NCBI GenBank assembly: GCA_023515725.1
Contig: JALDTO010000098.1
Span: 1,266,164 to 1,330,163 of the forward strand
Direction of reading: 5' to 3'
Length of the DNA stretch: 64,000 bases
From: Amoeboaphelidium protococcarum X5
Taxonomy: Eukaryota > Fungi > Aphelidiomycota
Shown: in pieces, positions 5,901 through 46,716 of the stretch
Layout: every line of letters begins with the position of its first letter
Position numbering within the stretch: the first letter of the stretch is position 1
The notes under the pieces: generated by a model
Database searches by the model: none
Seen by the model: only the letters and a program-made list of their open reading frames with translations
Told to the model about the DNA's origin: nothing
Translations under genes and position numbers: made by a program

Positions 5901-8333
5901 AGCAAGATCACCATCACTCATTCCAAATCGCCAAGATTCAGCCAGTAATGTGATATTATCAGCACTATAATTAGACTTCATATTATCAGTCAGAGTGCGA
6001 TTGATGGATTAAAATAACAAACTGTAGTTCTGTTATACCAATTCTACGCCATACATATACACCAGATTCCGGAACGCAAAGACTTGTGTTCTTTCAGAGA
6101 TTTGAGCGTTACTTTACATACTTTTGAAGAAATCAATCCCTAACACAGCTATTACGTGACAGAAACATAAGGACAATTTAGCGCATACTTTACCATTAGA
6201 TTTAAATTTGCGTTCAATATTTAAGAGAACTTCAATGATTTTCATAACGGCAGGCAATAACTCTCCATTACGCAGCAACAACAGCAAGTAGAAGGAATCT
6301 AGAACTGCAACAACAGTAGCTCCACTGTGGCGCTCATCAATAGATGTCAATATGGCTGAAATAAAATCAGATACGCTTTAAAATTGCTGACGGATGGATG
6401 CATTCTGATTCGAACTAATGAGAGATCTTAGCCTTTGAATATCTTATTCATTCGATTCCAAAGTGCTTAAATTCAAATCTTCCAATAGAACACCATCCTA
6501 CCCAAACTAACATTGGCTCAGAACAACATTTTTATCCACAATAAACAGCAGAAGCCAGATAATCAATTAAGATGCCTGACCAATGGCTTTATGCTTAACA
6601 GTTTCACTAACACCATTATCTTTACTATTCAGATTCGCATCATCATTGCTAAAAGTCCGACTTAAAACTTACAATACTGAAGGTACATCGCATTTAACGT
6701 TCTTGGCAAACTTTAAAAAGTTCAAAGAGATTTTAACAACTTCCGCATTGTCATCCACAGTTCCCGCAACACCAAGCAAATACTTCTTATCCGTGGTGTC
6801 TTCAAATATTCGTTCAGCTAGCCGAAATGCAGACAATCTGACATTTTCGTTCTCACTCATGCAATACCTGGTAGATATCGTATCCTATAACTCCTAAGAA
6901 TCTTCTACTATCTCGGATATTTGCGAGATTGACAACATAATCTACTGCTTCAAATCCTTGTTGGCAATACTTAATCGATCAAAGCAGAGTTGGATAAAAT
7001 CTTAAATACCTTTAGAATCAATAACAGACTTTTGATCACCCAAAGATCCGATTTAAGCAATGATTTAGAATGCAAATCCAAGCAAATCTTCCCCAACTTT
7101 TGCATTTTCATTCTAGAGAATACCCATAGCCATTTGGTAAATACTTTGTAATACCGCAGAGTCTTCACAACCACTAACAAAGTGGCGAGCGAATGCAACT
7201 ATAGACTGAAAGGCTTTATCATTTCCCCTGATTAGCCCGTCATCTACCAGCATTTGAATGACATTAACAGCTATCAAATACTATTCTTTTGCAATTTTAA
7301 ACCGACACAGTTCATTCATGAGTTTTACAAACAACTAAGTGCTAATGCGACAGAAAGCATCTTCAAGTCCCTGAGGCCGTTAAGCACACAGACTCAACAT
7401 CTAACCAGTGACCACCGAATAAGATTTTAATTTGGCCAGATTTCTCTTTCTGTACTCTTCGCACAGAGCTTATACTTCATGATTGCCATCAATTGACCCG
7501 ATTACAGCAATGACATAGTTCATCTGCTGAGCAATAAGAAGATTATCATTCATCACATCATTATCATTACTTTTACCAACACCATCAGCGGACTAAATCT
7601 TGAATACATTCGACAAAAGTTTCAGTTTAAGATTAGTCAAATGTTGATAAGATCGATCTATTCCATTGGCTTCTCCGTCAGTGATCAGATTAACATCACG
7701 CAAAGATAATCCATCAGGCTATCGCGTAATTTATAACTATTAACCTTGAGAATTAAGCAGGCCCCTCGTCGAGGCATTTAGAGCTATTTGTTACATAGAA
7801 GGTAGCCTCACCTTATAGTACATGATAAAAACAATGAGCCATCTGAACAGATGTTCCAAATCAACCTTGTCAAGAGCAAAATCGTTGGAGAACAGCGCGG
7901 ATAGTTCAACTGAGGGATCAGCACATAAAGAGTGCAATACAATAATTCTGAATAGCCTATTTCTCAAAGAACTATCTGCAGATGACAGTCCTATGACAAG
8001 CAGAGGTAATAACTTTTACTTGAGAGTCGAATCAATAACTCTATTCCACCCAATGTCCACAAATATCAGACTAATACTCTTCAGCAACAAAGATTTTCCC
8101 TTTGCATAAAGCTAAACTAACTAAGCCAGAGGCAAAACTATGCTGTTATTGAGTCTGGCTTTCAAATGGTCAACAATAGAAATGACTCTATCCCTGACAG
8201 CTTAGTCTTCAGAATCCAACTTCAGAAGCATCGCAGCCAAAAACTGATTAATGCACACCTACAACTTCTCATTCGTATCGGCCAGAGCAAACTTGAACTC
8301 TACTTGTTCTAACAACGAAAGATCTGCAGACAT
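2943..8333 (-). CDS. ECM29: Proteasome adapter/scaffold Ecm29 (HEAT repeats), ~1796 aa, single exon
   Basis: N-terminus MSADLSLLEQVEFKFALADTNEKLQVCINQFLAAMLLKL. Five ORF-track fragments share this frame. Length is a multiple of 3 and it ends in TGA. Confidence 0.9.
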
Positions 8334-8639: not shown

Positions 8640-10094
8640 TCACTTTCCCTACTATTTATTCATGAGTTTATCAACATACTTGAGCAGGAAATTGTCACAG
8701 CCATAATCGGCAATCAACTGCACCGATTTCCATTCATCCTGACGGGGAGGAACTGAGATAGACGGAAGCCCGGCAAGGCTAGATGGCGTTGTGAACACAT
8801 CATTCAAATACTCATCTACACTAGAGGATGATTTCGACGATGATGAGGAGGTGCGATTACCACCATTCACGTTCTCAATCAAGGGAGGATCACCTATGCT
8901 CACCGGCGTGAGTAATATATCCACCTTCTTGAATGCTTCTGAGTAATCTTGCGCAATCAGCCGCCTCACTTTCAACGCATTCATATAAAAGTCGTGATGT
9001 TCTGCTGAACTGGTCACATAATTTCCAAGTAAAATTCTTCGCTATACTTGACTTCCAAAATACGTTGATCTAGTCTCAGCAATCTCTGCCTGATACTACA
9101 TATCCGATTTCTATGTCCTCTAACCGAATCTTATTCCGTCATAACGTGCTAGATTACTAGCTGCCTCAGAACTAGCAATGGTATAGTATGTAGACAACGC
9201 ATATTTGGTATGAGGCAATGATACAGGTACAATATTCAAATTTAACTATTCAACATCATGCAATAATAGCTCATAATCAACTTCAGATGGAAAGTACTCA
9301 ATAGGTATACCAACTTTAATAACGGAGGCATTATCATCTGTGTCAACTTCTTATTGATTGAGACGAGAACATAGTAGATCACACTTTTATTTCAAAAGCG
9401 ATCTGCTTTCAACCGTTAACGAAGTAGGATCTTAAGAATCGTATACATTCATTACATTAAAAACACGGTCGATAGTGCTGATATCTCTTGCGAAAATGCC
9501 AACAGTGTCCAGCGATGACGCGTACGTGATCAGTCCCCAACGCGAGAGCATACCATAAGACGGTTTGAACCCATAGACGCGACAATACGCAGCAGGTAGA
9601 CGTGTTGATCCACCAGTATCAGTTCCAAGGGCAAAGTCGCATTACTCAGTACTTACTACCACTGCAGATCCACTACTTGAGCCACCGGCGACCCGCTTTT
9701 GATCATGAGGATTGCGGGCGGGTGGACTATAACTATTCAAACCATACGAACCCATTCCAAACTCGTCCATACTTGTCTTTCCAGTGCATACCGCGCCGTT
9801 CGCTTTGAGCAACCTAATCACTGTAGATTCAGTCTAAACGGGTGGATTATAATTTGCGAGAAATCGAGAATCGGCACTAGATGGGAACTCTGGCGTACAA
9901 AATGAATCTTTCGCCATGAATGTCATTCCTTTCAGTGGTTGGCTATCATCATCATCCAAGTGGTGTTATATTTGTGATAATACATCTGAGCGCGACTTAC
10001 TATGCAGGACAGCATTTAGCGACCTATGTCGAGATATCGATTCAAGTTATTTCGAGATTTTCTACATCATCATCTGTAGGCGATTAACTTTCAT
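8640..10094 (-). CDS. HER2: Mitochondrial glutamyl-tRNA(Gln) amidotransferase subunit A (amidase family)
   Basis: [42 protein letters not shown] and [11 protein letters not shown] motifs. Confidence 0.9.
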
Positions 10095-10191: not shown

Positions 10192-11433
10192 TCATTAAGC
10201 TTGCTGAGACTATGTATCAGCACTTCTAGCGGTACTCGCCACTAAACCATTAGGAGGAGGTATTTAAGATACTGCAGGAGAATCTTAAATTTCGACCCAT
10301 CCTAAGATTTCTGCTCGACAGGCAACGCACTGAGTGACGCGTGCTTATTGTTACTACACTTCCAAATGTCCATCATCAGCTCTTTACGCGACTTGTTATT
10401 GAGGAAGTTTAAAGCAATCAAAGCACATACAATTATGTCTGCAAGGAAGTGTTATTATTCTGGCATAATCTGAAAGACAGACAACGCACTGGGGCAAGTT
10501 TATAGCGGTCCCCTTGTTATCAAGAGACTATAGCGATTTCATAGACTGAGATGAAGATATGAATATGTCCTCTAATAGCAGCCATTGTTCAGTCTCATTA
10601 TCCTGTATAAGCATTTACTCATGCTGTAAATTGAATTGGACATCATTGATTGAAGCACTTCTCCGCCGTTCTTCGGGATCCGCGTCTTGTCGCAACTGCC
10701 CTTGAGCAATAAATACTATCTAAAATCGCGTGTCCTTAACAATTTTTAATTCTATAAGACTTGTTACGGATGAATTATTTTCGATCCTCTATTACTATAA
10801 TGGAATACTAATATCATTGACTCCTTGTTTTAGTTGAAATTTTCGCGAACTTTAGGATTTAGTTTACTACAACTCGACTTACTCTTGACGATTGTCGGAT
10901 GACTTTTAAATGTCCAGATTATTACCATTAGAGTTGATATTTTACTACTTTATGAGGATCTATTCAATTTCTTTTAGCGTAATATCAGAATGAATTACAT
11001 ATTCAATTTCACAATCTTGTATAGATTGACATTGAAACTGTACATGATAACTCTAATCCGGTTCATCTCCAACAGCTTTAATCTAAAAGGTATTCTTCAC
11101 CACCATAAAAGGACATTGCAGAGCAGGGCAGTTTAATGACGGTATCGGAATAGAAGATTTCCTCATAGAATTTAAATGAAATGCTGATAGTTGTTCAAAA
11201 TACTAGTACGGCAAAGATATCCCAGATATCAAATCACTCTCAAACTATAACGGTGTATACTTGTTACGGAGATAGAGCCTCTCTGCAAAGTTAATGCGAC
11301 GATTATCCACCAACTTTCGATATACCATCATTATCAGAAAGGTGACTATTAGCGATGAGATAAACTAAGTCCAACTACTATTATTCATATCAGACCAGAG
11401 AACGTCATTCCAATTATACTTTGAACTCGCCAT
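10192..11433 (-). CDS. N-terminal TM + C-terminal RING finger protein (CGRRF1-like E3 ligase)
   Basis: Hydrophobic FISSLIVTFLIMMVY, then CVVCLSDYARIITLPCRHNCMCFDC...CVACRAEI; 413 aa. Confidence 0.75.
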
Positions 11434-12024
11434 ACTAAGTGTTTTTAAACGTATCGTCTATTGTTTTGCCAAGAAGTTAGTGCACTGTAGAAGAACTCTT
11501 GTTTTCACTGCGCGTCAATGAGCGATATATTTTCCTAGAGCGTTTGTTCCTGACAATTTTAATTATTTTCCATTGAAAAGGTATCACGAAAGCTATGTTG
11601 TTTCAACACTAATAACGCGTACCGTTCCGTTCCGTGTAAGATTGGCTTCTATTACAGATACCCTGTAAAGAATCTCCTTTTTTATTAAGAACTGTTTGGA
11701 ATAATTAATAAGAAATCTTTTATATAGCTTTGAATTCAGGGCATATTGTAAATATTTAAGAAATGTGCGCTCTCAATAAATATCTGTTAGTAAGCTGCCA
11801 CCTGTGAACAATTACATCCATCCAACAGTGTCGTTGTTTGACAATTTCAATTCGGACGATCGTTAACAGTGAGAAACAACAACAACAACAACTTTCATCA
11901 CCAAACAGACGCTAGCCCCTTATTCCTTCATATTCGCTGCTTTATTCACTGGAACTTAATTCCTGATTTTTAGTACTGTGTGGAGTAAAAAGAATTAAAT
12001 ATCAACTGTAACAATAATTTAAAG

Positions 12025-12645: not shown

Positions 12646-13578
12646 TCACAAAATATTCAAGAATCTAATCTCTTTCACCATCCATTACTGGTCAGAATGC
12701 TTTTAATCACGTGAGCTTTGTAAGGTAATGAGCATCAAGTTACCATCTTTGAGTGAGCCTGGATTGAGGACACTGATATTACCAATTTACTATCTACCAA
12801 TACCATAATGAGTGTGACCATGAATGTTCAAACAGACTGACGATTGAACATACGAGTCCATTAGATATTGATTTAAGGCAAATGAGCCAGAGTTGATGCG
12901 CGAATTTTAATATAGAGGTTACCGATTAATGTCTGTGGTGCTAGCATAAGCTGGTCCGCAATGTGTCATCAGAATAGTATTTCTTCCACCATGTCCACCT
13001 TAGTGTGATATTTGCGATTGCTATTAACTTAACAAAGATCCCAAATCACTGCTCATCCACTCTTCCGGATGATGATGAAATTTGTACGGATACCCATCCC
13101 ATTCAAAGTAATTGAAATCATGATACTTATATCCAGGCGTAGATCCTCCGAGTCCAGCTATATACAGCGACGCATCTTTACAATGTGGTGGTGTGATATC
13201 AAGTACTCTTCTATGAACGCTGACAACATTCCTGAAGTGATGACCACCACGCATTGAATCCACCTAATTATTACCATCACTACACACTCTAAACGCGGAC
13301 TCGACATCATGATTACCAGGAATCCAATAGAATTTAATGTCATTGACGCATAGTTGTTCATCTATATACTCTAGCATTGTATAGAGCTAAGTTTCATGTT
13401 GGTCAATCTCGCGTTGGCTAATGTTTGCTTTATCATGGTACACGTTCCCCAGATCTCCTGGACAGAGAATCATGTCATACTTCAACTTGTTATCCAGAAT
13501 AAAGTCCTTCAATCGCTGGAGATTCTACATGGAGAAGTGAATATCAGACATTACCAGTATGGTGATTGCATTGACCAT
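12646..13578 (-). CDS. Calcineurin-like metallophosphoesterase
   Basis: SDIH, PGDLG, PGNHD, MTHCGP, HGHTH and NPGSL motifs; 310 aa. Confidence 0.88.
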
Positions 13579-14860
13579 TTTTATAGCCTTGGTATAGAAT
13601 AATATATGGAAATTTAACTGATCTGCTAAAGGGAAAACCAGATGGAACTTGTTTTAACTTGTCTGATCTCTAAACACGATAATGTTGATATCAATCAAGT
13701 TTCCATTTTAATCAATAAGAAGCTGATGATTAATTGGAAGACTTTTTTCTCATTAGGCAGCTGGGTTATGAGGTTCAGTAATAGTAGGCCAAATGTAAAT
13801 TGCAATGGTTGCATTTATGATGTACGTTTCAACTGCAAGGTGCCAAGTCGAGGCAAAGTTGTCATATTTGACGATTGGCGGTTGACTACGATTTGTATCA
13901 TCTCTATGAGTTGAGTGTCGCGTAAGTTTGCCGTGTTAGTATATCCAAGTATTAGTCTCTGCTTGATTGATATAAAACGGCGTAAAAAGGCATATCTTTC
14001 ATTTTAAGATGAAAAATAGTGTATGAGATTAAAGTGATTAGCGTGAATTATGAGTGAACACAATAATATTGCTTCTACATCGCCTGTCTGAGTGTCTGCA
14101 TCCCCAATGAAACTGTAACAATACTCATTTCCAAGAGTCTGAATATAATTCTTACTAACAGCCGCCACAACATTGGACTCATAATGTTCCAAACAAGGAT
14201 GAGGACTGAAAGTTGATTAGAAATACCGCCATCAAGCTGTTCCCCGGTGATCGCCTTGATCAAGCTGCTTTCGCTGAGCTTTGCGTGGCGCTTACTGCAA
14301 CGGACTGTTATCGTTTTGCATTCAATGAAAGCCATGGGTCAAGGATGTAACGTGTCCCTTTTGGTATTCGATTATTATACTGTAGTGATTAAAATAGAGA
14401 TTTATTTACACGAAAAAGAGTGTTCACCTGATGCGATTGCTAAACGTGTCAGTATCCAATAACAGTTATTAGGACAATTCTAGAATACAAGAAAGGCGAA
14501 AATTGTGGCGGATCAATCATTCGTGCACCAAGTCCTTTTGAAATTTTTTATCCATAAAGTATTTGTATGATAGTTAGTCTTATTTTAAATACGATTATCA
14601 ATGAGATTCTATATATTTTTACATACTCTTCAATACAAGTCAATAATCTAATTACTCGTTTACTTTATTGCCAATCTTCTGAGCTTGTCTCAATACCGTC
14701 ACAATACCAATAACTCCTGAGTGGTTTTAAGCTGCGACCATCCTCATTGATATCACAATGAAATGATGACTGGTCGTGTCACATCTCATCATTGCATTGT
14801 ATTCAATGCTTACTGACAGTGTTCTAATTCTTTCATCGCAATACTGATAATCATTTGAAA

Positions 14861-17047
14861 ATGTAGCCAAGCCAAAAACGTGAATTATCTGCGGCTGCAA
14901 AGACAGCACTAGAAGATTTCAAAACTTAAGCATATCATCAAGATATTCCCGGATTTCTCTCCGTGTGTGCTAAGGTGATCAATGAAGTTGATATTCGGAT
15001 AGTCAAAGAACTTGGCGCATCATCATTTGCCGCATTTGCTCCAGTATTTGCCCCTTGGTATAATACTAAATCTGAATGGTTTGGACATTATGTTTGGAAT
15101 GGCAACACAGACGCGTTCAATTAACGACTGTTGTTAAAATGCACTGACAAGGACTGGCAAATACCGTAATCTTAATAAACAGAACACTCCTTAACAGCAA
15201 AGTTCAATCCTAATTTGAATCGTAAAGACATGGGACAAAACGTAAGTGAGAGCCAAGAGAAGTAAAGTTTTAGTCAGGTGCAGCATTAAATTGAGAATAT
15301 CATTGAATCCAAAATGCGGAATTAGTAGATTGCATCAGATACAGACTCTCTAATGGCTAAATGGAAATCTAAGCAGTAATAGTCGTCATCTAAGAGTTTG
15401 AAGAAGAAGAAGAAGAAAGTGCTACAGCTTTCGGAATAATCTAAAGTGGCGTTGGAAAACATGAAACCAAAAATCGGCAAGATGAAAAATCGGCAAGAGA
15501 TTGCCGAACTGAATCAGTATGATCAGATACGCTCGATTAATATTCGTATATTCCCTGATAAGAAGTTCATACACAAATTCAATGAATGGCTGGATCTCAA
15601 GTTTCAAATGGTCAATTTCATCATTAACATTTTGAATGATTCCAGAGATTAAGGAGAAAAGGTGTCAATACAAGCGCTAAGGAACCATGTTGCGCTAAGT
15701 TAAGTCAAAGCCAAAAAGTGCCGCGTGCCTGATGACGACCCAAGATTGCGTTGGATGCGAATGCCATCTACAGTGCAAGATGAGATTATTAATGCGACTC
15801 GCACGTATTACTATGCGGCTCATGAGAAGTATACAAAGGGTGATATCAAAGACTACAACTTTATGCCAAATAGAGATGATGATTAGTTTTAGATGCTCCA
15901 GTTTCAAGCGTAAGATGCCCGTGTAGATCCAGATAGCAATCGCGTCCGCCTACTGCCTTCATTCCTCAAGAGCTTTGGGAAACTGTATGCCAAAGATCCT
16001 CTATTCTAAGAGCCTGGCAAGATTGACTACTGGCCCCGTTTCATCAAGTTTGGCTATGGCAGAGGAAGAGAGTTCAAGCTCGTGAAAAGAAGAAAAAAGT
16101 TCTTTGTGATTGTTTCGTATGATGCCTCCTGTATATAAGGTCCATTCACTGATTGGTATTACTAGCAACTGCAAGATATGAATAATGCAGATGAGAATCT
16201 TGAAGGTGCTAGATCATTTATAAGCCGCCGTGATGCGCGTTGCCGTTAAACTGGAAACACTTGCTCGGTGGATCCAGGTGTTAGAGTGAGCATGACCGTC
16301 TTCGATTTGGATCGCAGGTCATTCATTGCGATTGCGCCTGATTTCAAGTAGCTTTATAAGAATAAGAGTGAATAGATTTCCAATGCATAGTCTCTGAAAG
16401 ATTAGATGGATAATCGCGCAGCTGCTTTACAGAATGGACAATTGAGTCTGGAGGAGTTTAAAGCGTAGAAGAAAGAATTATGGCACACATGGAAGTAATC
16501 AAAGAATAATGTTGTTCCCACTGATATTGGCATTAGTCGTGCTTACACCAAATTCTCTGCATATGTATCGAATTTGCATAACCGAATTGGCAACTTTTTG
16601 ATGCGGCATTATGATCTAATCATTCTTCCCGAGTTTCTGACTATTAAGATGGTGAAGAAACGGAGAAAGCGTTTGAATCTACCTCCCGTTCTAAGTGATA
16701 CGGCCGATGTACTGGTAACACACTCGCGTGGTTAATAAAATTCTGGGCATATTCTCCATAAAAATACGCGGAACACTCTATTGGCGTTTAGCCATTACAA
16801 GTGTCGTATGAAACTTATTGCAATGGCATAAGCTAATATATTTAGATCTGGAAAGTAAGTGCTCGTGACAACGGAGGAGTTTACGTCGAAACAACATCCG
16901 TTTCAGAATGTGCTACATAACTGTCTTGGTGCTGATGAGTACTTCATGTTGGGTGATTTTCGTGCATATCGGGATAATGTTGGATCATATAATGTTATGT
17001 CTCGAAGTTTTTCTAAGGAAGAAGTGAAATTGGTTACTGCGAACTGA
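14861..17047 (+). mobile_element. Fanzor2 / IS607-TnpB-like RNA-guided endonuclease ORF, 728 aa
   Basis: Open frame under TAR=Gln. APWYN..W N-terminal motif, poly-K NLS, IRSINIRIFPD, RuvC-I SVDPGVR (16271), YDLIILPEF (16628), SHYKCRMKL, TEEFTSK (16874) and RuvC-III RDNVGSYNV (16973). Confidence 0.88.
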
Positions 17048-37857: not shown

Positions 37858-39519
37858 TCAGTTACCAGTACGCGTCTTCTTGCGATTTCTTCCATGTTGC
37901 ATTCCACCTGAAGCACCTCTCTTTCCAGAATGGCGATCTGACTGCGATGGAACATACACATTAGCGGTCCAATACTCTTCCTCCTCTGCTCCAGATACAA
38001 GAGACAGATCAAACTTGCACTCCAATTGCTTGCCAGCGGCGTCAGATCCTGATGGTGTGGCAATGTACTTCAAAGACTCCAAATCACCGCTATGCTATTC
38101 CAACAGCTCCTTAGCCTTGGCATCATACAGTCTAACGAGACCAGTCAACTTGTTCTCTGCAGCCTCCGTCTCCAAAGGAAAGTCAATGTATTTGATCACG
38201 CCGAATTTGGCTGCAAAGTAATCTTTCAACTCATGACGCGTAGGCAATTGAATCTTATCATTACCAGCACTCAGATCAACTTCAACTCCATCAGAGTCAA
38301 TAATCTACTTTACCTAGAATTTGACCAGCTTGTTGTGATCAACAAAGGTGTTAACCACCTCCATTTCTGGTACCAGATACAATTTACCTTTAACAACAAC
38401 AGATTCTTACTATTCACTTTCACCTTCAGCCTTCTTCGTATCCAATGACAATTTGAAGAATGTAAATTTCTCCACAACCTTCTTGGTGTTGTTGGATGCA
38501 AACTTGACAATGAACTTCACCTTCTTCAAGTTGCTCTTTGGAGCACCTTCAGACTACTCCTACTACTATTACTCCTATTCAGGCTGATTTTCCTAGCTCT
38601 GCTCATCAACCTTCTCAGCCTTAACATGTTACAACGACACAACATAATTACTGTCGACAGAGTTCAACTCCTTGCGCAATGACAAAATCAGCTTGAAAAG
38701 TAACTCCTAATCAGCATCAACATCCAAACTGTCTGGCAAAAATAGCTTCACCTTGGCGCAGGTGGTCACCTTCAACTTGGCCTATTCTTCAAGATACGAC
38801 TTTTTATCCAAAGCAGTAATGGTGCGATTAGATCCATCGGCAACAGGATATTGCAACAGCTTCTTGGCAGACAGATCAGTCAGCCATTTGACGTCCTCAA
38901 CACGCTTCATCTCCACCCAAGCCTGTCCGTTGAAGCTGCGCTACTTATTTGCACCCTCTGCAGATTCACCATCAGTCTTTTTAGCACTGAAATTTCCCGG
39001 AGTACTACGATGCTACATCTTGATCAGAGCAACTCCGGCATAGGAACTCTTCGCATCACCTTCAGCAGAGGATTCAATAAACTTCAACACTTCAGTATTT
39101 AGGAAATTCATCAAATCATCCAGCGAGGCAGTAAAAGGGAAATTAGTCATGTGCATAGTCACCGCGTCAGACTTCTCTTGCATAGCTTGAGGATCAGCAG
39201 TAAGATCATAAGGAGTCAGTCTGCCCACAGTCTTTGCATCGCTATCAACCTTCAGATCCGAAGACTTGCTCAATGCTTCGATAAGAACAGCTATCTGCTT
39301 CTCCTGATCAAAGGCATCGCTTTCCACATTATCCGATTCCTGTTGATATTACTACAGCAGAGATTGGACGCGCTTAAAGGTCAGCAACGTGGCCAGTGGA
39401 ATCTGCTCACTTTTAGCCAATTCGATACGCATGAAATTGTCCCTCTTCAGATTGCTATCGCTAAAGTAAAACTCAATCTACTACTGTAATTTACTATTTA
39501 TCAATTCAGCGGATGTCAT
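37858..39519 (-). CDS. La-family RNA-binding protein (La motif + RRM + C-terminal RRM2/xRRM)
   Basis: QIEFYFSDSNLKRDNFM, IPLATLLTFKRV; C-terminal KYIDF...GLVRL...VSGAEEEEYW. Confidence 0.85.
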
Positions 39520-39741
39520 TATGATTACTACTGATAACTCTATTTTATCACTTTATTCACTTAAAATTCGGTAACATTGATTTGAGAAAAGAGGGCAAAG
39601 TGCTTTAGCTGAGTGACGAGAGAAAAACGCGCAAATTTCTGCTTGAAGATTTCTCCCTGAACAAAGTCACAGCGGAACTCCTTTGCTATCATAAAGCAGT
39701 ATTTGTTGAATTTAAAGAATCTGATATCCTTAGTTTTCATA

Positions 39742-41106
39742 ATGGTTAATCTAGGCAAGACTCTGAAGCGAGCGGCTGGGTATGAGATGCAGTATGATTC
39801 TGATATGAACTTGGATGGTGGCTCGTCATCTTCTGATGGTAGTGAAATCTATGATGGTGTTAGTGACCGGAATGAAAATGATACTCTGATAGTAGACCAG
39901 GTATCGTAAGGGAAACCAAGTTCATTGAGAGCAAGTCTTGCATTAGACGATCTTGCATAGATGGAAGGCTACAAATCTGCCAAAGTGAATCGCGAAGATT
40001 TATATTCAGACGAAGATTAAGACTCCCAGGATGCTTTCAGTCATAGCGATGTTAGTGGAGATGAATACCTGAAATAACGCGGCGACGATAGTGAAGATGA
40101 TTATTCAGAATCTGATTACGGTGACGGCTATGATGATAATAATACTGACTTGGGTAAAGTGGTACAAAATCTTCAGGCTGAGTAAAGCGCGTTCATCCAC
40201 TAAGTGTAAAAGGGTTCGAAGAATGATCATTTGAAGGGTCTACATGTACGTAATCAGCTCAAAATACAGGATAGTCTTCTGGATATGAGAATTAGAATGC
40301 AAAAGTTATTAACTGTCGCTAATCAGCTGCCGGATGCTTAAATAGCGCCCTTGTATTATCAGACCATAGGAGAGGATGAGTCTGAAGCTGCAACTCTTAC
40401 GGCCCGCACTGCTGCGTAAACGGAGTTGAAAGTTCTGATTAAGTAATTGATGGGTATGTAATTCTAGTCATTTAATAAGGCGGCTAACATGCATGGAGTA
40501 AAGGATAAAGTTAGTCTTGAAGGCGGTAATGATTAGAGTATCGAAGACGCGTATTAGACTTATGTTCAGTTTTAAGCAAAGTAATTACAATAAGCTATTG
40601 CTAGTACCATACCAAAGTGGTAAAATAAACTTGCCAATCCATCGCAGAAGGGAATGAAAGTTTTGAACCAGCCTATGCACTAGCAAATTGATAGTATTAT
40701 GAAAAATGACTATGAACGGGTAATCAAACGGGTCAGAGTCAACTCTGTTGCACAATAGAATAAGATTGGATCTTAGCTGCTGAAGGATGCACAAGTATTT
40801 GATGATTTTGACTTTTACTCTCAGCAACTCAAGGATTTGATTAATTCAAAATCATCCATAAATGGAACTGCTGATACTGTTGCATTATCTGAGCATATGG
40901 TCAAATTGAAGCAGCTTAACAAGAAGAAAAAGAAGCGTGAGAGTTAGGATAGGAAGTTGAACAAGGATCGAACCATAAAGTATGTGCCTATGGATAAGTT
41001 GGTCAACTTTATGGTATCCCGATCTGATCCTCTTATTTCATCCGACTTTAAATGGCACGAATCCATGGTTGATGAGCTGTGCAAGTCGCTTTCTAGTTAG
41101 AAATGA
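39742..41106 (+). CDS. BFR2: Ribosome biogenesis protein Bfr2/AATF
   Basis: Acidic N-terminus; KGLHVRNQ..LLDMRIRMQK, FDDFDFYSQQLKDLI, KYVPMDKLVNFM. Confidence 0.88.
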
Positions 41107-41154
41107 ATTTATTAATAAACCTCATACTATATCGTATCAAGTAAAGGGATAATA

Positions 41155-42030
41155 TCAATTCTATTTTAGCAATTCGTCAAACATTAAAAGCATCCTTTGA
41201 GCGTAATTTCGCGGCTCGATAAAGCGCGGGAAATACCAATAGGCGGCCGGTATGAGATACCTACCAATATCACGCAGTCTTGAATAATCTCCTAGAATAT
41301 CTATTATGGCAAGGTGAAAGTATCCGTCATTGTACACATCCAGCAGAAAACTATAGTCATTAACGTTGATACTGATGAGGAACTTTACGTCTTCTTCCAC
41401 AATTAATCTCAAATTACTGATTCTTGCAGGATCTCTATTAGTCGCTGGTTTGTCATCAAGATACCGTTTATAATCGCGGATATCACGTCCATGAAGTAAA
41501 TCTTTCGCTTTAATATCGTAAGAATCGACTTTCTACCTCTACATCCTCACTATCTGATCATTATCGATTCCACTCATAGGATCGACATTAGACATTAGAA
41601 CAAGGTAAATCTTCTTTCTCTGTCTTTATCCATCTGCACCTTCACTTACGCGATATGCTCCCAAGAACTTGCATAAAATACTATTAGGATTTCGCGCTAG
41701 ATGCTCTTCATACTTTGGCAGTTATCTAAGCAGGTATTACATCTCATGATGAGCCAGCGATTTAATCAGAAACTGATCGTCGTGAGTAAAGAAGAACGTC
41801 GATCCTGAATGAGCCAACTGCCCGGCAGAGTTTAGCGGTTGTGACATTGATTACAAAATCTATTCCAGATTAACGTTTAGTGTCTTTCGGATTTTGTCAA
41901 ATACCAGAGGATTATATTTTTTTACATTTATTTACTTATAATCCTGATTAGTTATTTTTAACCCATATTTTTCGCTGACTATTTCAACATGATCATCGTC
42001 TGCAAAGTGGTTTTCGTGAGGCTCATGACT
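41155..42030 (-). pseudogene. Phosphatidylinositol-phosphate kinase (PIP5K/PIP4K family), main 3' part; interrupted by the 42031-45767 insertion
   Basis: YNPLVFDKIR, HSGSTFFFTHDDQFLIKS, YDIK, DYSFLL and AIIDIL motifs. There is no in-frame ATG on this side of the insertion. Confidence 0.8.
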
Positions 42031-42076
42031 GATTTAGTCCGTCAGTTTTTATATAAAAACTGACGGACTAAATCAG
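42029..42076. repeat. Perfect 48-bp palindrome at the left end of the insertion
   Basis: CTGATTTAGTCCGTCAGTTTTTAT|ATAAAAACTGACGGACTAAATCAG, with no spacer. Confidence 0.97.
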
Positions 42077-42740
42077 AAAACGGAAAAAAGTCGAAAAAAA
42101 TCCGTGGAAGAAAAGTAAAAAACGGAAAAAAGTCGAAAAAAATCCGTTTTTGGGATCTTGAAGTTTGTGGAAGTTTTGTAGATTACTTTTCTTCCAATGT
42201 CTGTATCACGGTGTAATTTACTGCGGGTTTGGAATACTTTACAATTATGCGGGGTTAAGAATTGTCTTGGGTGTTTTTGGGTGTCTTTGGGTGTCTGAAA
42301 GCGCCCCGATGATTTTAAAGCGCTTTTTGTCATTTTTGTCATTTTGCGGGGGTCTTTTCTCCTAAAATAGTTTGGGTGTTTTGGGTGTCAAAAAAAGGGT
42401 CCAAAAAACCGGTCCTGAGAATAAAAACTTTTTTCACGATGAAATTTTTTTTGAAAAAAGTTTTTATTTTTCAGGACCAACCCATTTTTTACAAGATCTC
42501 ACACCCAAACTATTTTAGGAGTACTTCTCCTACTTATTAAAATATTATTATTTTTTTAGGTATAAATTTACTCCTATATTTCTGGGTGTTTTGGGTGTCT
42601 TTGGGTGTGGGAAAGCGCCCCACCCAGAAAAAACAAAGACGCTGATTGGTCAATATTTTAGGGAGACGTAAACAAAAACCCCGCAGTAAATTACTACGGG
42701 GTTAGTGTGATTTGGTTGGTTGGTGGTATTTGGTTGGGGT
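42077..42740. repeat. Origin-like region with direct repeats and three nested inverted repeats
   Basis: 29-bp DR at 42077-42105/42119-42147. IR pairs at 42213-42227/42680-42694, 42359-42379/42501-42521 and 42411-42436/42452-42478. ~40-bp DR at 42268-42307/42583-42621, built from TTTGGGTGT units. Confidence 0.9.
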
Positions 42741-42750
42741 TGTGTGGGTT

Positions 42751-44940
42751 TCAAAGACTACAATAATCTGTTTCTTAAACTACTAATTTCATATTCTCAA
42801 TCACTAACCTTTTAGCTCTATTCTTTTCGTTGTATTTGCTACAACATCCCTTGACAGCTTTGTTTTAACAGCTTTTACAGATATGTTGATATCTCACTTT
42901 AAAATCATTCTTCTACAGTACTTCATTGTCTTTGTCAAGGTATAAATCTATTCTTTAATTTGGAAATTTCACCTTGATATACTAATTTAAGCTGTTCTTA
43001 AATCTATCCCATGAAGTTTACGCCCCTTCTTCATATGAGCAGTAATATCTTCTACCCTTATACTCTTCTCCAGCATCATCAAGAAATTTCTAAACAACAT
43101 TGACTTGTTCAAAAATACTGCTTCTCAAACTTCTAAAGTATTATGGACAAAAAGTCCAAAAGTCCTAACCACTCGTTTTGATATGTTCATTGATATCCCA
43201 ATACACTCTCAAAGCCTTCAATAAAATCCCAGGAGCTTCAAGCTGTATTTTCTTGTCCAAATTAACATCCTTCTTATGACTTCTTTTTGTAAAATGAAAT
43301 GGAACAATTCTTCTCATATGTTACTCTTCACTGTAATCTAACCATTCGTTTCCACAGGTTATAATATTACTCTTCCACTCATCAATTTCTTCAGGCTGTT
43401 TACCTTTAACCGGAACAAGTAATGACTCTCCGGCAACCATCTTTAAGAACTTTTCGGATGCAAGATTATTACTAAATCTTTATTGGACTTCAAGACACAT
43501 TAAAAGTTCTTTATCTACCCAGCTCATCATTCCAAAGGTCTTTTCATTTTAAGCTTCAATCTAACCTATAAATTTCATACCTATTAAATACTATATAACG
43601 TTCTTCAAAATTGTAGATTTGCCTGTCCCGCTTCCTCCTCTGATGTGAAACATAATTTGTAGGTTATCTTCCTAAGGACTAAAAAAACAGCGTCCTAAAG
43701 CAAACAAGAAGTATTTAATGACCTCATCTTTTTCTTCTAAACCCCCAAATTGATAATTAAGCATTTGATCAAAGTTAGGGGTCTTTTGATCTTATTAGAT
43801 TTCTTAATCTATATAGTTTCTAACAACAATGTCTGTGTCCACTTTCAGGTCTTCATATGAAATGTAAGCAAATGTCCTAATGTTAAATATACCGTTCTTA
43901 AAACCAATCCAATCTAAATCTCTCTTCAAGTCTGTAAATGCATTGTTCTATTTCAAATATCTAATCATACTTTCAAAGTAGGAGCTCTTAGTGGAAAAAA
44001 GATTGTAAAATGAATTCTCTGTATTGAACACTACATTTTTGACAAACTCTTTGAAGTTGACAAACTTTTTGTAAACACCAGGTTTACCTTCAATTTACTT
44101 GTATACGTCTTCGTTGTAAATCTTACACTTTAATTTGTTGAATACTATAATCATCTCATGTAACAATACCAACTCAACAGTCTCTTTATCTTCGTTTTAC
44201 TATAACTTGATCTCTTTGTATCCGCAGTTTCCAAAACATTTTAATATGATATTATTCTAGTTTATAACCGCATAACTTTAACAATGTGAATGTTATTTCC
44301 CACTAACAAGACACGTAATTGAATTATTCCAAAAAGATTTATTGTTTGAAGTCAACCAATTACAATCCAACCCCAACTTTTGGTTTAATAATTCTTGTTT
44401 TCTTTGTCCACAATCCTTACCATTCTCTTTAATGTTGGTCATGTCCATTATTTTATCAACCATTTCCTCATTCATTTCTATAATAGGACAGTCCTTTTCT
44501 ACGGGGTAAAGCTCACCTTAAAAAGCACATCCGCCGTTTGTCAAGAGATCAATACTCATACCCCCAAGTTTAATAATTGGTTTCTTTAGTCTTTAGTCGT
44601 ACTTGAAGAACATATGGACACCACCACTAGGACTTTTAAAGGTAAGTGTGTTTAAGTCAGTGTAATCAAATCCAAAGACCTCTTGAAACTGTTCAATACC
44701 GTTGTCAATATTGGGTTTGACATCAATATCAAGACATATTAAATTGTATTCTTCACCCAATTTAACTCCTATATGACGGTCATTGATATTGAAATCATTA
44801 GACTAGATATCTCTCCATTTCTTTTTAACGCTTGTTAGGACTTTTCCATCTTATTATACTGTCTTTTCAACACCTCCAAATACTACACAGTCCTTAAAGT
44901 AGTTATTGACGTAATCAGTGATTCTAAATTGGCTTACCAT
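42751..44940 (-). CDS. Prim-Pol (bifunctional primase/polymerase) + D5-type SF3 helicase, 729 aa
   Basis: LICLDIDVK and KSPSGGVHMFFKY (AEP motifs); IGFKNGIFNI (D5_N); Walker A GGSGTGKST; motif C IITCGNE; RRIVPFHF; C-terminal CKSC..KGCC. Open only with TAR=Gln. Confidence 0.9.
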
Positions 44941-45024
44941 TTTGTTTAATCTTGTCTAATCTTGTTTTTCTTTAATAAGTATTAAAGAAAATCTTTTAAA
45001 TAGATTACGTTTGGGTTTAGTAAT

Positions 45025-45357
45025 TCAAACTTAGATTAAAAAGCCTCTTTAATGCTTGTTCTTTGTTGACTACTTGGTTTTATAAATAGCATTCATACTG
45101 AGTTTGAAAGCCCCTGAAAATTCGCGCTTACATTTCTTATTGTTTGGAAACATGGTTTTAAAAGTTTCAAACAGTTCAACAGTTGAAATGAAGATAAAGT
45201 CTTTATAGTTTGACATCTTCTAGCAGCTGAATTAGTTGTAATTATTCTTGACGTATTCCTTGAATTTTTCAACGTCTTCGTCTTTTTGTGTAATTCTAAC
45301 CTCTAGTAGCTGCTTTTAGAGTTGACTTAGTTATTAGAGAATTTCCTGTTCATTCAT
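45025..45357 (-). CDS. Small protein, 110 aa, putative winged-helix DNA-binding (D5 C-terminal-like)
   Basis: Coiled N-terminus, then FKEYV...ISTVELFETF...KREF...QRGF; AAAATG start. The fold is inferred. Confidence 0.55.
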
Positions 45358-45368
45358 TTTATTAATTG

Positions 45369-45431
45369 TATAGATATAATTTTTTTTAAATAACTTAGAT
45401 AAAAAGTTATTTAAAGTTTTTTATATCTATA
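45369..45431. promoter_or_regulatory. Symmetric bidirectional promoter-like inverted repeat between the divergent element ORFs
   Basis: TATAGATATAA..TTTAAATAACT / AGTTATTTAAA..TTATATCTATA. The same motif precedes both ATGs (45357 on -, 45447 on +). Confidence 0.55.
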
Positions 45432-45446
45432 ATGTTAAAGACAAAA

Positions 45447-45614
45447 ATGAACGGAGTTACAAGTATTGAAGATAATTTCTATTGGTATTTTTCAAATGGC
45501 TAGATTTTCAATAAGAAGTAGGGATAATTTTAAAAGCTGAGCCCAACAGGTGGATATTTAAAATTTAAGGATAAAAATGTGAAAAAAACCGTAGGGGTAC
45601 ATCGTAAAATATAC
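45447..45614 (+). pseudogene. NUMOD4/HNH endonuclease N-terminal fragment, truncated by telomeric repeats
   Basis: YWYFSNGQIFNKKQGQFQKLSPTGGYLKFKDKNVKKTVGVHRKIY runs straight into the repeat tract. Confidence 0.65.
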
Positions 45615-45767
45615 AGGCAGGGCAGGCAGGGTTAGGGCAGGGTTAGGGCAGGGTTAGGGCAGGGTTAGCAGGGTAGGGCAGGGCAGGGTTAGGGTTAGGC
45701 AGGGTAGGGGAAGGGCAGGGTTAGGGCAGGGTTGGGGCAGGGTTGGGCAGGGTTAGGGCAGGGTTAG
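45614..45767 (+). repeat. Interstitial telomere-like tract, irregular (TTAGGGCAGGG)n
   Basis: TTAGGG and CAGGG units interleaved with variants over ~150 bp. Confidence 0.92.
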
Positions 45768-45833
45768 AATTCCCAACCAATGCAAAAATAATTAATAGAT
45801 GATGCTCGAGCACGTTGATTTTGTTGATTTCAT
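45768..45833 (-). pseudogene. Probable first 22 codons of the interrupted PIP kinase
   Basis: MKSTKSTCSSIIYQLFLHWLGI joins in frame to SHEPHENHF at 42030. Confidence 0.6.
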
Positions 45834-46716
45834 AATCACTGCTAATTCTGGTCTTCATCAACTGAATGAATTGGGCTCTCAGTACGCGATTCCTTGGTAC
45901 ATTGAAGATGTCCTTGTGGGATATATGAAACCAGACTTTGTGAAACTGGTGATGAGCTAATGCGAAGACACGTTCATAATGGGTTATTAGAATAAGCGAC
46001 TGCTGTTAAATCCGCGTTATAGTACCTTCCATTAGCGGTCTGTGGCTTTGTAAGACGCGATGCTTAAACTGTATCATTCTTAGTTGATTTAAGTCAAGTT
46101 GCGATACGAACTTTATCTTGTTTGCGGTGAATTAGGATCTGAAGAAGCTGTATGTGTCGTTGAGCGTGCCTTCTCAAAATTGCTTGGTATCAGGCAATAT
46201 GGTAATCATCTCAATGGATACGTGATCGACACGATTACTGGTGAGATGAAGATGTATGTCTGTAAACGATCATAAAGTAAATCTTAATATCCAGGGATGC
46301 TTGATAACTTGGTAGGCGGCGGCCGTCCATATTTGATGAGAGATTTCGATAATATTGTCAAAGAAGCATGGGAAGAAGTTTCAATGCCACCTGAAGTTGC
46401 GCGTCAATGCAAATAAGTTGGCTCTGTATCTTTTGTAAAAGACCATTCAGAGGGCGGAATTATCCGTGAGACGGAGGTGATATTTGACATTGATCTATCC
46501 ATTGGTAGTAAGAATGGTGATGACTTCTAACCAGTGCCAAATGACGGCGAAGTGTCTGAGATTTACCTATGGTCTATACAAGACGTGGTTAATCGTTTGG
46601 AAGATTTTACACCTGAGGCTGGCTTGATAGTCATTGACTTTCTCATTCGCCATAAATTTATAGACTAGCATTCATAATATGCTAAGATTATTAAATTATT
46701 ACACTAAAATATATGA
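45799..46716 (+). CDS. Nudix hydrolase, YJR142W/thiamine-diphosphatase-like
   Basis: VERAFSKLLGIRQYGNHLNGY, KRSQSKSQYPGMLDNLVGGG, KEAWEE, PNDGEV, DFLIRH. Confidence 0.88.

Follow-up and report, generated by a model that had tools for sequence, protein, structure and literature searches.

DNA replicons with hairpin ends include poxviruses, parvoviruses, and phage N15, and a perfect palindrome corresponds to a hairpin end that has been copied. In Polinton-like viruses, an end module has been described that consists of an inverted repeat, a D5-like primase-helicase, and a tyrosine recombinase, the primase-helicase being proposed to adjoin the terminal inverted repeat (available text of PMC11296320). 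Mycodnaviridae also possess D5-like helicase-primases, and their integration in zoosporic fungi is described in the accessible part of PMC13533422. The pFOXC retroplasmids of Fusarium oxysporum are mitochondrial, 1.9 kb in length, and encode a reverse transcriptase (RT); one of their ends is a hairpin, and the other carries 3-5 telomere-like repeats of their own making (PMC3035579). Membership in this class would also call for a free molecule with a closed hairpin and a 5'-linked protein. In Acanthamoeba castellanii, foreign DNA gains telomeric repeats and sometimes integrates; as far as the available text of PMC11995660 goes, these transgene minichromosomes are artificial tandem arrays with very high copy number and two telomeres.

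The locus described here is a 3.7-kb block of virus-like DNA (42029-45767) that is present as a single copy and lies between two chromosome blocks of Amoeboaphelidium protococcarum. Positions are those of the window, the 64-kb stretch that was analysed, which contains no N. As in the Polinton-like end module, the primase-helicase gene lies directly beside a terminal repeat region that is a putative origin (PMC11296320, same part), and HNH genes are annotated in Polinton-like viruses too (PMC10120064, accessible part). In contrast to these viruses, the block has no recombinase, capsid, or second terminal inverted repeat (TIR), measures 3.7 kb rather than 15-30 kb, and has a perfect terminal palindrome and a telomere-like right end. 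For membership in the Polintons, the layout of the end module was found in this copy, while capsid/packaging genes, an integrase, and TIRs or a target-site duplication were not. With Mycodnaviridae and Nucleocytoviricota the block shares the architecture of the primase-helicase, relatives of which occur in giant-virus MAGs, and a host that is sister to fungi. However, it is about 100-fold smaller and lacks 9-34-kb terminal repeats, and its helicase is distant on the tree; the giant-virus hallmarks (MCP, PolB, and A32 in 80-350 kb) were not found in these 3.7 kb between host genes. The likeness to pFOXC would hold if the block has a free form, but the block is nuclear (code 6, nuclear flanks), encodes a primase-helicase and no RT, and carries a tract that looks host-made. 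Unlike the Acanthamoeba minichromosomes, it is natural and single-copy with one tract, and in contrast to the hairpin-ended replicons, this copy lacks genes for a protelomerase, an HUH Rep, or a resolvase. No such element was found for aphelids in the open literature, the Mycodnaviridae paper included; subscription papers, among them the genome paper, lay outside this search.

Organization of the block

The block has a GC content of 33.3%, lower than that of its flanks (39.9% and 40.1%), in agreement with the AT-rich block of the preliminary description. From left to right, it comprises a 48-bp palindrome, a non-coding region, the helicase gene, a 110-amino-acid orphan, a cut HNH-like gene, and a tract of 154 bp. 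Three open reading frames (ORFs) were considered credible; a 133-amino-acid frame at 42309-42710 gave no family match and was taken as a shadow of repeats. The ORF list and the family and profile searches revealed neither a capsid gene nor an integrase (tyrosine recombinase or rve) among the ORFs of the block, and the TIR score of its ends was 23 versus a shuffle mean of 23.6, so that the absence of TIRs, integrase, and capsid noted earlier was borne out. No target-site duplication was present at the junction edges, the sole shared word being a 6-mer located at some distance from each junction. Likewise, no capsid, integrase, or polymerase tying the block to a named virus group was found in this copy. 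Bacterial or phage contamination was ruled out by the code-6 reading and the host flanks.

Palindrome and adjoining non-coding region

The left end is a perfect, spacer-less 48-bp palindrome with an A/T center (42029-42076; arms 42029-42052 and 42053-42076), as had been reported. The next-longest palindrome arm in the window was 7 nt, and shuffling the block 300 times gave arms of at most 10 nt. In run X2 the palindrome formed a separate 48-nt contig with a depth of 82.2, which fits one copy because it is counted on both arms. In each of the sample's four runs (X1-X4), contigs stopped at the palindrome, a break that does not separate the order flank-palindrome-element from a fold-back. At the left junction, the Ser25 codon of a PIP5K-family gene and the palindrome share 2 nt, a CT microhomology; the junction was represented by a contig of 58 nt that includes 28 letters of the flank, short of the 31 letters required for a bridge.

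The palindrome is proposed to be a natural terminus, presumably the opened and copied form of a hairpin end. This is supported by a diverged relative (relative B), in which the same edge of the palindrome adjoins other DNA. Relative B, a 1733-nt contig with a depth of 88 in X2, aligned to 42026-42118 with 9 differences and was present in X2, X3, and X4 but absent among the matches listed for X1. Outside the palindrome its sequence differs from the window, and its interior gave no alignment to the block at 80% beyond 42118. The outer sequence is probably host DNA: its 30 letters, read by eye, contain LYDY, which we take to be an SH3-like motif (chance of about 5e-4 for LYDY). Both relative B and a further relative (relative C, below) were seen as alignments with 30-letter loose ends.

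ACGGA/TCCGT motifs in alternating orientation occupy 42038-42147, the last four spaced 21 nt apart (42080, 42101, 42122, and 42143); they resemble iterons and may be binding sites. A 42-nt direct repeat (D3) was also recorded here. The structured non-coding region as a whole (42077-42750) combines GGGTGT repeats with perfect inverted repeat pairs at 42359-42379/42501-42521 and 42420-42436/42452-42468 and a 94% pair at 42213-42230/42677-42694. The folding of 42020-42760, palindrome included, gave z = -11.7, with 0 of 20 shuffles as stable. No credible Rfam family was matched by the region; MIR1120 matches at 42401-42488 were far below the gathering score and were dismissed as a generic hairpin. 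Judged from these features, the region is a candidate origin.

Primase-helicase

The gene at 44940-42751 (minus strand, code 6) is an open frame of 729 amino acids encoding an intact Prim-Pol plus D5/SF3 helicase, as the preliminary description had claimed. This assignment is supported by Pfam matches (DUF5906/D5_N), PHROG matches to primase families that include the N-terminal part, and a D5-type primase-helicase fold in structure comparison, the best fold match being the D5 primase/helicase of an Aureococcus anophagefferens virus. The C terminus bears a CxxC..CC motif. Glutamine is encoded by TAA/TAG at 30 of 45 positions, from which it was deduced that the helicase evolved in a code-6 host; the TAA/TAG = Gln code is on record for A. 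protococcarum (accessible part of PMC5304391).

The helicase family comprised 2149 representatives at E ≤ 0.001, the best having 43% identity and lying on an 11.7-kb contig. Two members are located in giant-virus MAG contigs that also encode SNF2, multicopper oxidase, phytochrome, and S1/P1 nuclease. The giant-virus MAG helicase L001 belongs to the same family as the block helicase but is distant on the tree (2.47, versus 1.08 for P0018), in which it was the one giant-virus MAG helicase kept and named Mycodnaviridae proteins were absent. Viral scans gave no full-length close relative with context (no locus in most, two loci in one). A metagenome scan with the closest-pair query gave four loci matching the N-terminal domain only (24-33%), with no long palindrome or tract, and a word-based protein search gave three distant matches and, among named aphelid proteins of 400-1276 amino acids, no paralogue. 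For P0018, the ESM Atlas returned generic Prim-Pol/D5 clusters only.

Right part of the block

The 110-amino-acid orphan ORF (45025-45357, minus strand, code 6) has a coiled-coil-like N terminus. Its sole match was phrog_37887, a family with no assigned function (E = 1.5e-4); no other homologue was found, and the structure model was poor (pLDDT 53). The earlier label of wHTH-like drew no support from family, homologue, or structure searches. Between this ORF and the divergent HNH-like gene lies an AT-rich imperfect inverted repeat (I1, 45348-45452; 49-nt arms, 73%), a candidate two-way promoter.

The earlier mention of a broken HNH gene was upheld, although by weak PHROG matches only (phrog_59, E = 0.002; phrog_959, E = 0.04), with no Pfam match and no meaningful PDB match. 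The fragment is the 5' part of an HNH-endonuclease-like gene (45432-45613, plus strand; start at 45432 or 45447), cut at about codon 61 by the repeat tract. Relative C aligns to 45435-45541 (13 differences), has a depth of 3.2-4.5 times that of the element, and continues the HNH-like gene in frame over a contig stretch of 1058 nt; the 30 letters shown contain no tract. All four listed differences in the HNH-like frame are synonymous. Relatives B and C and the present copy need not be one family.

The block ends in a degenerate (GGGTTAGGGCA)n tract of 154 bp (45614-45767, plus strand; period 11, 13 copies, 80% matches), with its G strand directed away from the element. All eight matches of a 14-nt motif in the window fall inside the tract, where 0.10 would be expected, consistent with the G-rich telomere-like tract first noted. 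Element contigs of runs X1-X4 extend 42-53 nt beyond 45600 into it. No aphelid telomere motif was found in the literature searched; the tract is telomere-like and a putative host telomere.

Flanking genes and rearrangement

The left flank retains the 3' part of a host PIP5K-family gene (41155-42030, minus strand; Pfam PIP5K, E = 1.7e-29), which lacks its promoter and codons 1-24; its orthologue P0009 has 317 amino acids (92%). Contigs of the intact PIP5K allele diverge from the window after 42030 in seven of eight runs (all except X5). The right flank starts with an intact DUF4743 gene (45799-46716, plus strand; Pfam DUF4743), presumably of the Nudix type, which begins 31 bp from the tract and has 305 amino acids, like two named copies. 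The element had been described as inserted into a host gene. The PIP5K gene is indeed broken, but the right flank does not contain the 5' part that it has lost, and with no target-site duplication a simple insertion was ruled out. In one annotated copy, the tags corresponding to the two flanks (007816-007820 and 007368-007379) lie on one 2.24-Mb contig, 436 tags apart and colinear with the window, on the assumption that tag numbers follow the gene order of each contig. The remaining named annotated copies have the flanks on separate contigs. As read from sequence, the block is situated at a rearrangement junction between non-adjacent host blocks.

Copy number

Runs X1-X4, from one sample, were compared as assembled contigs, depth being contig depth. 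The element had 0.61-0.92 of single-allele depth in all four runs, and in X2 its depth of 54.1 was matched by 52.6 for the same-haplotype flank. The element is one chromosomal copy without episomal excess; the excess coverage that had been suggested as a check was not seen, and a high-copy episome was ruled out. The element is absent from a second sample of the species; a 35-nt match (43502-43536) in runs X6-X8 was treated as chance. In run X5, a metagenome from a separate 2025 sample, three contigs of 96-98% identity lay inside the element, covering about 500 bp at a depth of 2-2.4 and reaching neither end, and all four listed helicase changes were synonymous.

Origin of the block

On balance, we favor the block being the natural left end of a larger aphelid element, a DNA virus or linear plasmid not described before, that was broken, telomere-capped, and captured at a rearrangement. 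The parent would replicate by means of its own Prim-Pol/SF3 helicase, starting in the repeat-rich region next to an end closed by a hairpin. If this hairpin were nicked site-specifically at 24 nt from its tip and then copied, a blunt end with the perfect 48-bp palindrome would result. Joining of such ends to host DNA would let independent copies share the edge, here with the 2-nt microhomology. The far side probably broke within the HNH-like gene, and telomeric repeats would have been added, likely by host telomerase, on free DNA or after the element had capped the broken PIP5K arm. The short degenerate tract may then have been fused, likely by end joining, to a second broken end that lay 31 bp ahead of the DUF4743 gene, a fusion that would have removed or relocated about 0.6-0.7 Mb (estimated from locus tags). 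It follows from this scenario that the telomere-like end would be an accident of this copy rather than family design. Precedents are the primase-helicase end module (PMC11296320) and, in the part available, telomere addition to foreign DNA in Acanthamoeba (PMC11995660). Against this reading, only this copy's part of the parent element is seen, the hairpin form is deduced, and the right junction at 45767/45768 is a candidate based on assembly.

The preliminary description had offered a captured linear replicon, either hairpin-ended or one arm of a ~7.4-kb palindrome, or else the last piece of a larger virus or replicon with hairpin ends; this last option fits best, given the edge shared with relative B, and a captured free hairpin-plus-telomere replicon found no positive support. 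It seems doubtful that a small linear replicon, closed by a hairpin on one side and ending on the other in a telomere that the host maintains (or one arm of a telomere-capped palindrome of 7.4 kb), replicated with its own primase-helicase and was captured whole at a chromosome break. The parts needed (terminus, repeat region, and intact helicase) are all in the block, the X5 pieces with their synonymous helicase changes lie entirely within it, the contig breaks at the palindrome are compatible with fold-back too, and telomere-capped episomes of foreign DNA are described for Acanthamoeba (accessible text of PMC11995660). However, element depth shows no excess, the depth of the palindrome contig is explained by one copy, the tract cuts a gene that continues in relative C, and the low X5 depth fits free or integrated DNA alike. 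A whole family of capsid-less nuclear plasmids in aphelids, with a hairpin end, a telomerase-kept end, and a giant-virus-type primase-helicase, occasionally patching chromosome breaks, was judged similarly improbable; if real, such plasmids would reshuffle host chromosomes via a ready-made telomere.

Even less probable is that the left arm, element, and telomere form a true chromosome end capped by the block and that the DUF4743 block was joined by the assembler. The outward G-rich strand is as at chromosome ends, repeats are often misjoin points, and the right junction is drawn from the assembly; yet no N occurs in the window, and the tract is degenerate and short. Another annotated copy, moreover, has both blocks in colinear order on a single contig, which would be rare for a random misjoin. 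Least credible was an internal scrap of a giant, Mycodnaviridae-like endogenous virus, the palindrome being an internal origin or a chance breakpoint. HNH genes are common in giant-virus genomes, and members of the helicase family occur in giant-virus MAG contigs. Integration of Mycodnaviridae with D5-like helicase-primases in zoosporic fungi would also agree (PMC13533422, part available). This is opposed by the tree distance of L001 relative to P0018, by two junctions at the same palindrome edge, and by the 700 bp of repeat-rich non-coding DNA, which suits an end module.

The favored reading, the end of a larger element, makes the recurrent junction at the palindrome edge a prediction on the end chemistry of the parent. 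The host grows in culture, so that a free form is directly searchable. The locus looks like virus-derived, telomere-like-capped DNA that bridges a large rearrangement and wrecked one host gene copy, and it suggests that aphelids, the sister lineage of fungi, have among them a host whose TAA/TAG = Gln code a family of DNA viruses or plasmids has adapted to.

Anatomy and coding content of the element

The AT-rich block at 42029-45767 (GC, 33% versus 40% in the flanks) begins with a perfect 48-bp palindrome (42029-42076) of two 24-nt arms with no spacer, both points being as given in the preliminary description. The longest other palindrome in the window has 7-nt arms, and the longest arm in 300 shuffles was no more than 10 nt. 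ACGGA/TCCGT motifs were found in alternating orientation at 42038, 42063, 42080, 42101, 42122, and 42143, and the region from 42020 to 42760, which includes the palindrome, gave a folding z of −11.7. At the other end is a 154-bp tract of period 11, the sequence of which did not occur again in a whole-window scan. The absence of a matching TIR pair was confirmed by comparison of the block ends, and no duplication was found at the junction edges. The CpG observed/expected ratio was 0.49 for the helicase and 0.81 to 0.87 for the flanks.

Code 6 fits the window, as long ORFs were obtained with TAA and TAG read as Gln, and UAR=Gln has been reported for Amoeboaphelidium protococcarum (PMC5304391). 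The helicase ORF (44940-42751, minus strand) is open throughout its 729 codons, with TAA or TAG at 30 of its 45 Gln codons. Beyond it lie a 110-aa ORF and then a divergent HNH-like fragment. The 110-aa ORF had been called wHTH-like, which was not supported by profile, homology, or structure-model searches. The fragment runs into the tract; its HNH label is weakly backed by profile search (E = 0.002). The feature is real and in part as first described. AAAATG is present at a candidate start of each of the three genes (44940, 45357, and 45447), and the divergent genes (candidate starts 45357 and 45447) face each other over an imperfect inverted repeat.

Relationships of the primase-helicase

The proposal of an intact Prim-Pol/D5-SF3 helicase was borne out by Pfam matches to DUF5906 and, weakly, D5_N; by PHROGs matches to DNA primases, one spanning residues 47-120; and by the structure model (pLDDT 85), whose top fold match was the Aureococcus anophagefferens virus D5 primase/helicase (E = 1e-44) and which matched poxvirus E5/D5 and SaPI primase-helicases among solved structures. 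The full phmmer scan returned 2149 representatives at E ≤ 0.001 (138 at 1e-30), the closest being P0018 (43% identity), from an 11.7-kb contig. All 35 aligned sequences retain the same Walker A residues and the same four cysteines at the C-terminus. In the helicase-region tree (FastTree, midpoint root, 150/156 sequences kept, with P0008, P0074, P0149, P0160, P0166, and the L002 protein dropped), P0018 was the partner (support 1.0, distance 1.08), followed by P0023/24/32 (support 0.86). Family members with readable context were found only in two giant-virus MAG contigs, L001 and L002, the L001 protein being at a distance of 2.47. The element protein is a predicted Nucleocytoviricota/PLV-type replicase whose nearest relatives lack readable context.

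In L001, a phytochrome-like histidine kinase (12770-15061; PAS_2, GAF, PHY, and HATPase_c) adjoins the helicase, and a multicopper oxidase and a CAP protein are also encoded. L001 also has a perfect palindrome (14-nt arms) near 12650, some 560 bp downstream of its helicase gene, which is the side that the palindrome occupies in the window; it may be due to chance, the contig being only 26% GC. The clusters of P0019 and P0031, two distinct family members, both have a longest contig of 124,495 bp, suggesting two helicase copies on one large contig.

In its arrangement the element corresponds to the end module that has been put forward for Polinton-like viruses (PMC11296320). The element was not assigned to these viruses because the capsid, integrase, TIRs, and usual size of 15-30 kb are missing (PMC10120064). 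Mycodnaviridae integrate in zoosporic fungi and have 9-34-kb terminal repeats; "aphelid" and "hairpin" are absent from the main text of that paper, and its supplements may list aphelid genomes (PMC13533422). In the open-access literature searched, neither a description of the element nor an aphelid telomere motif was found.

Chromosomal site

The left PIP5K-family gene (41155-42030, minus strand) lacks codons 1-24 in the window; intact orthologues are 317 aa, and a 92% identical one is named from A. protococcarum. Such named copies were found for 7 of the 10 flanking sequences (two lie outside the collection, and one has no named member). Intact-allele contigs diverge from the window after 42030 in seven of eight runs (all but X5), and therefore CT at 42029-42030 is common to host and palindrome. 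To the right, an intact 305-aa DUF4743 gene (45799-46716, plus strand) begins 31 bp from the tract.

In the named copies, the locus tags are 007816-007820, 011899-011903, and 010650-010654 for the left genes and 007368-007379, 009715-009729, and 000031-000040 for the right genes. Both flank blocks occur on one 2.24-Mb contig in the window's order, 436 tags apart (about 0.6-0.7 Mb, estimated from the local spacing of 1.4-1.6 kb per tag), and on separate contigs in the other named copies. Because of this separation, the block as assembled probably marks a deletion or translocation junction, on the assumption that tags run in contig order. Over 38500-42030, a second host copy of equal depth differs by about 10% in DNA (e.g., 47 differences in 449 nt); its PIP5K gene is intact, and it resembles a hybrid-genome situation.

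Copy number and diverged relatives

The read evidence consisted of assembled contigs only. In the four runs of one sample (X1-X4), 92-95% of the words of 41000-45600 were present, and the element was recovered as one or two exact contigs from 42047. Its depth relative to the listed single-allele flank contigs was 0.92, 0.87, 0.61, and 0.81 in X1, X2, X3, and X4, respectively. The excess coverage anticipated for a replicon was not seen. Contig depth is a poor copy measure, but ratios taken within one isolate run are still incompatible with an abundant episome. In X2, the element had a depth of 54.1, its same-haplotype flank 52.6, and the 58-nt junction contig 43.1; the palindrome reached 82.2, as expected when both arms of a single copy contribute to the count. 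The left junction contig carries 28 flank letters, under the 31-letter bar for a bridge, and contigs break at the palindrome, which is compatible with a linear junction and with fold-back alike. The second sample (three runs, same species label) gave an intact left gene and no element cover; a 35-nt element match there was taken as chance.

Two diverged contigs of the first sample align partly with the element. Relative B (1733 nt; depth 88 in X2; listed in X2, X3, and X4 and not among the X1 contigs listed) aligned over 42026-42118, where 9 differences and 2 gap letters were counted. Another 69 letters, unlike those of the window, lie on the outer side of its palindrome, and 1573 that do not align lie on the inner side. 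By eye, its 30 outer letters spell an LYDY motif, with a chance probability of about 5e-4 over 30 nt; we take the motif to be of the SH3 type. This reading suggests that a second, SH3-domain-like host gene may be joined at the same palindrome edge. B also has an A-to-C change at 42057 within the palindrome and diverged ACGGA/TCCGT repeats. Relative C (1762 nt, at 3.2-4.5 times the element's depth in X1-X4) matched 45435-45541 with 13 differences, all 4 of those listed being synonymous, and its next 30 letters continue the HNH-like frame under code 6. C could be an element that was amplified recently or exists in free form. The link of both to the element is partial because neither aligned at 80% to the helicase. 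In X5, a run that dates from 2025 and belongs to another study, three contigs were 96-98% identical to the element over 42123-42401 and 43076-43295; their depth was 2-2.4, at which differences may be errors. All four listed helicase changes were synonymous third positions (1.2% by chance from position alone).

Proposed origin

Two copies have a precise left end, and the right end is ragged and interrupts a gene; this combination suggests a natural terminus on the left and an accidental one on the right. A left end cut by a transposase would be equally precise, but the block has no transposase gene. In hairpin-telomere replication, a fixed-site nick followed by copying turns a hairpin end into a blunt perfect palindrome. 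A hairpin end of the element, nicked at a fixed site and then copied, would likewise give a palindrome usable by end joining, and the HNH-like protein is no more than a candidate for the nuclease that would open the hairpin. For the right end, the preferred reading is a break that telomerase would have healed and that was then fused to a second break in host DNA. In Acanthamoeba, foreign DNA has been reported to receive telomeres (PMC11995660).

With pFOXC (PMC3035579), only the hairpin-plus-repeat outline is held in common. A true class of hairpin-plus-telomere plasmids appears unlikely. We lean instead, with some reserve, toward a telomere-healed terminal fragment that lies at a chromosome rearrangement and comes from an aphelid DNA virus or plasmid, so far undescribed and adapted to code 6. 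Relative C offers the most promising route to the parent element.
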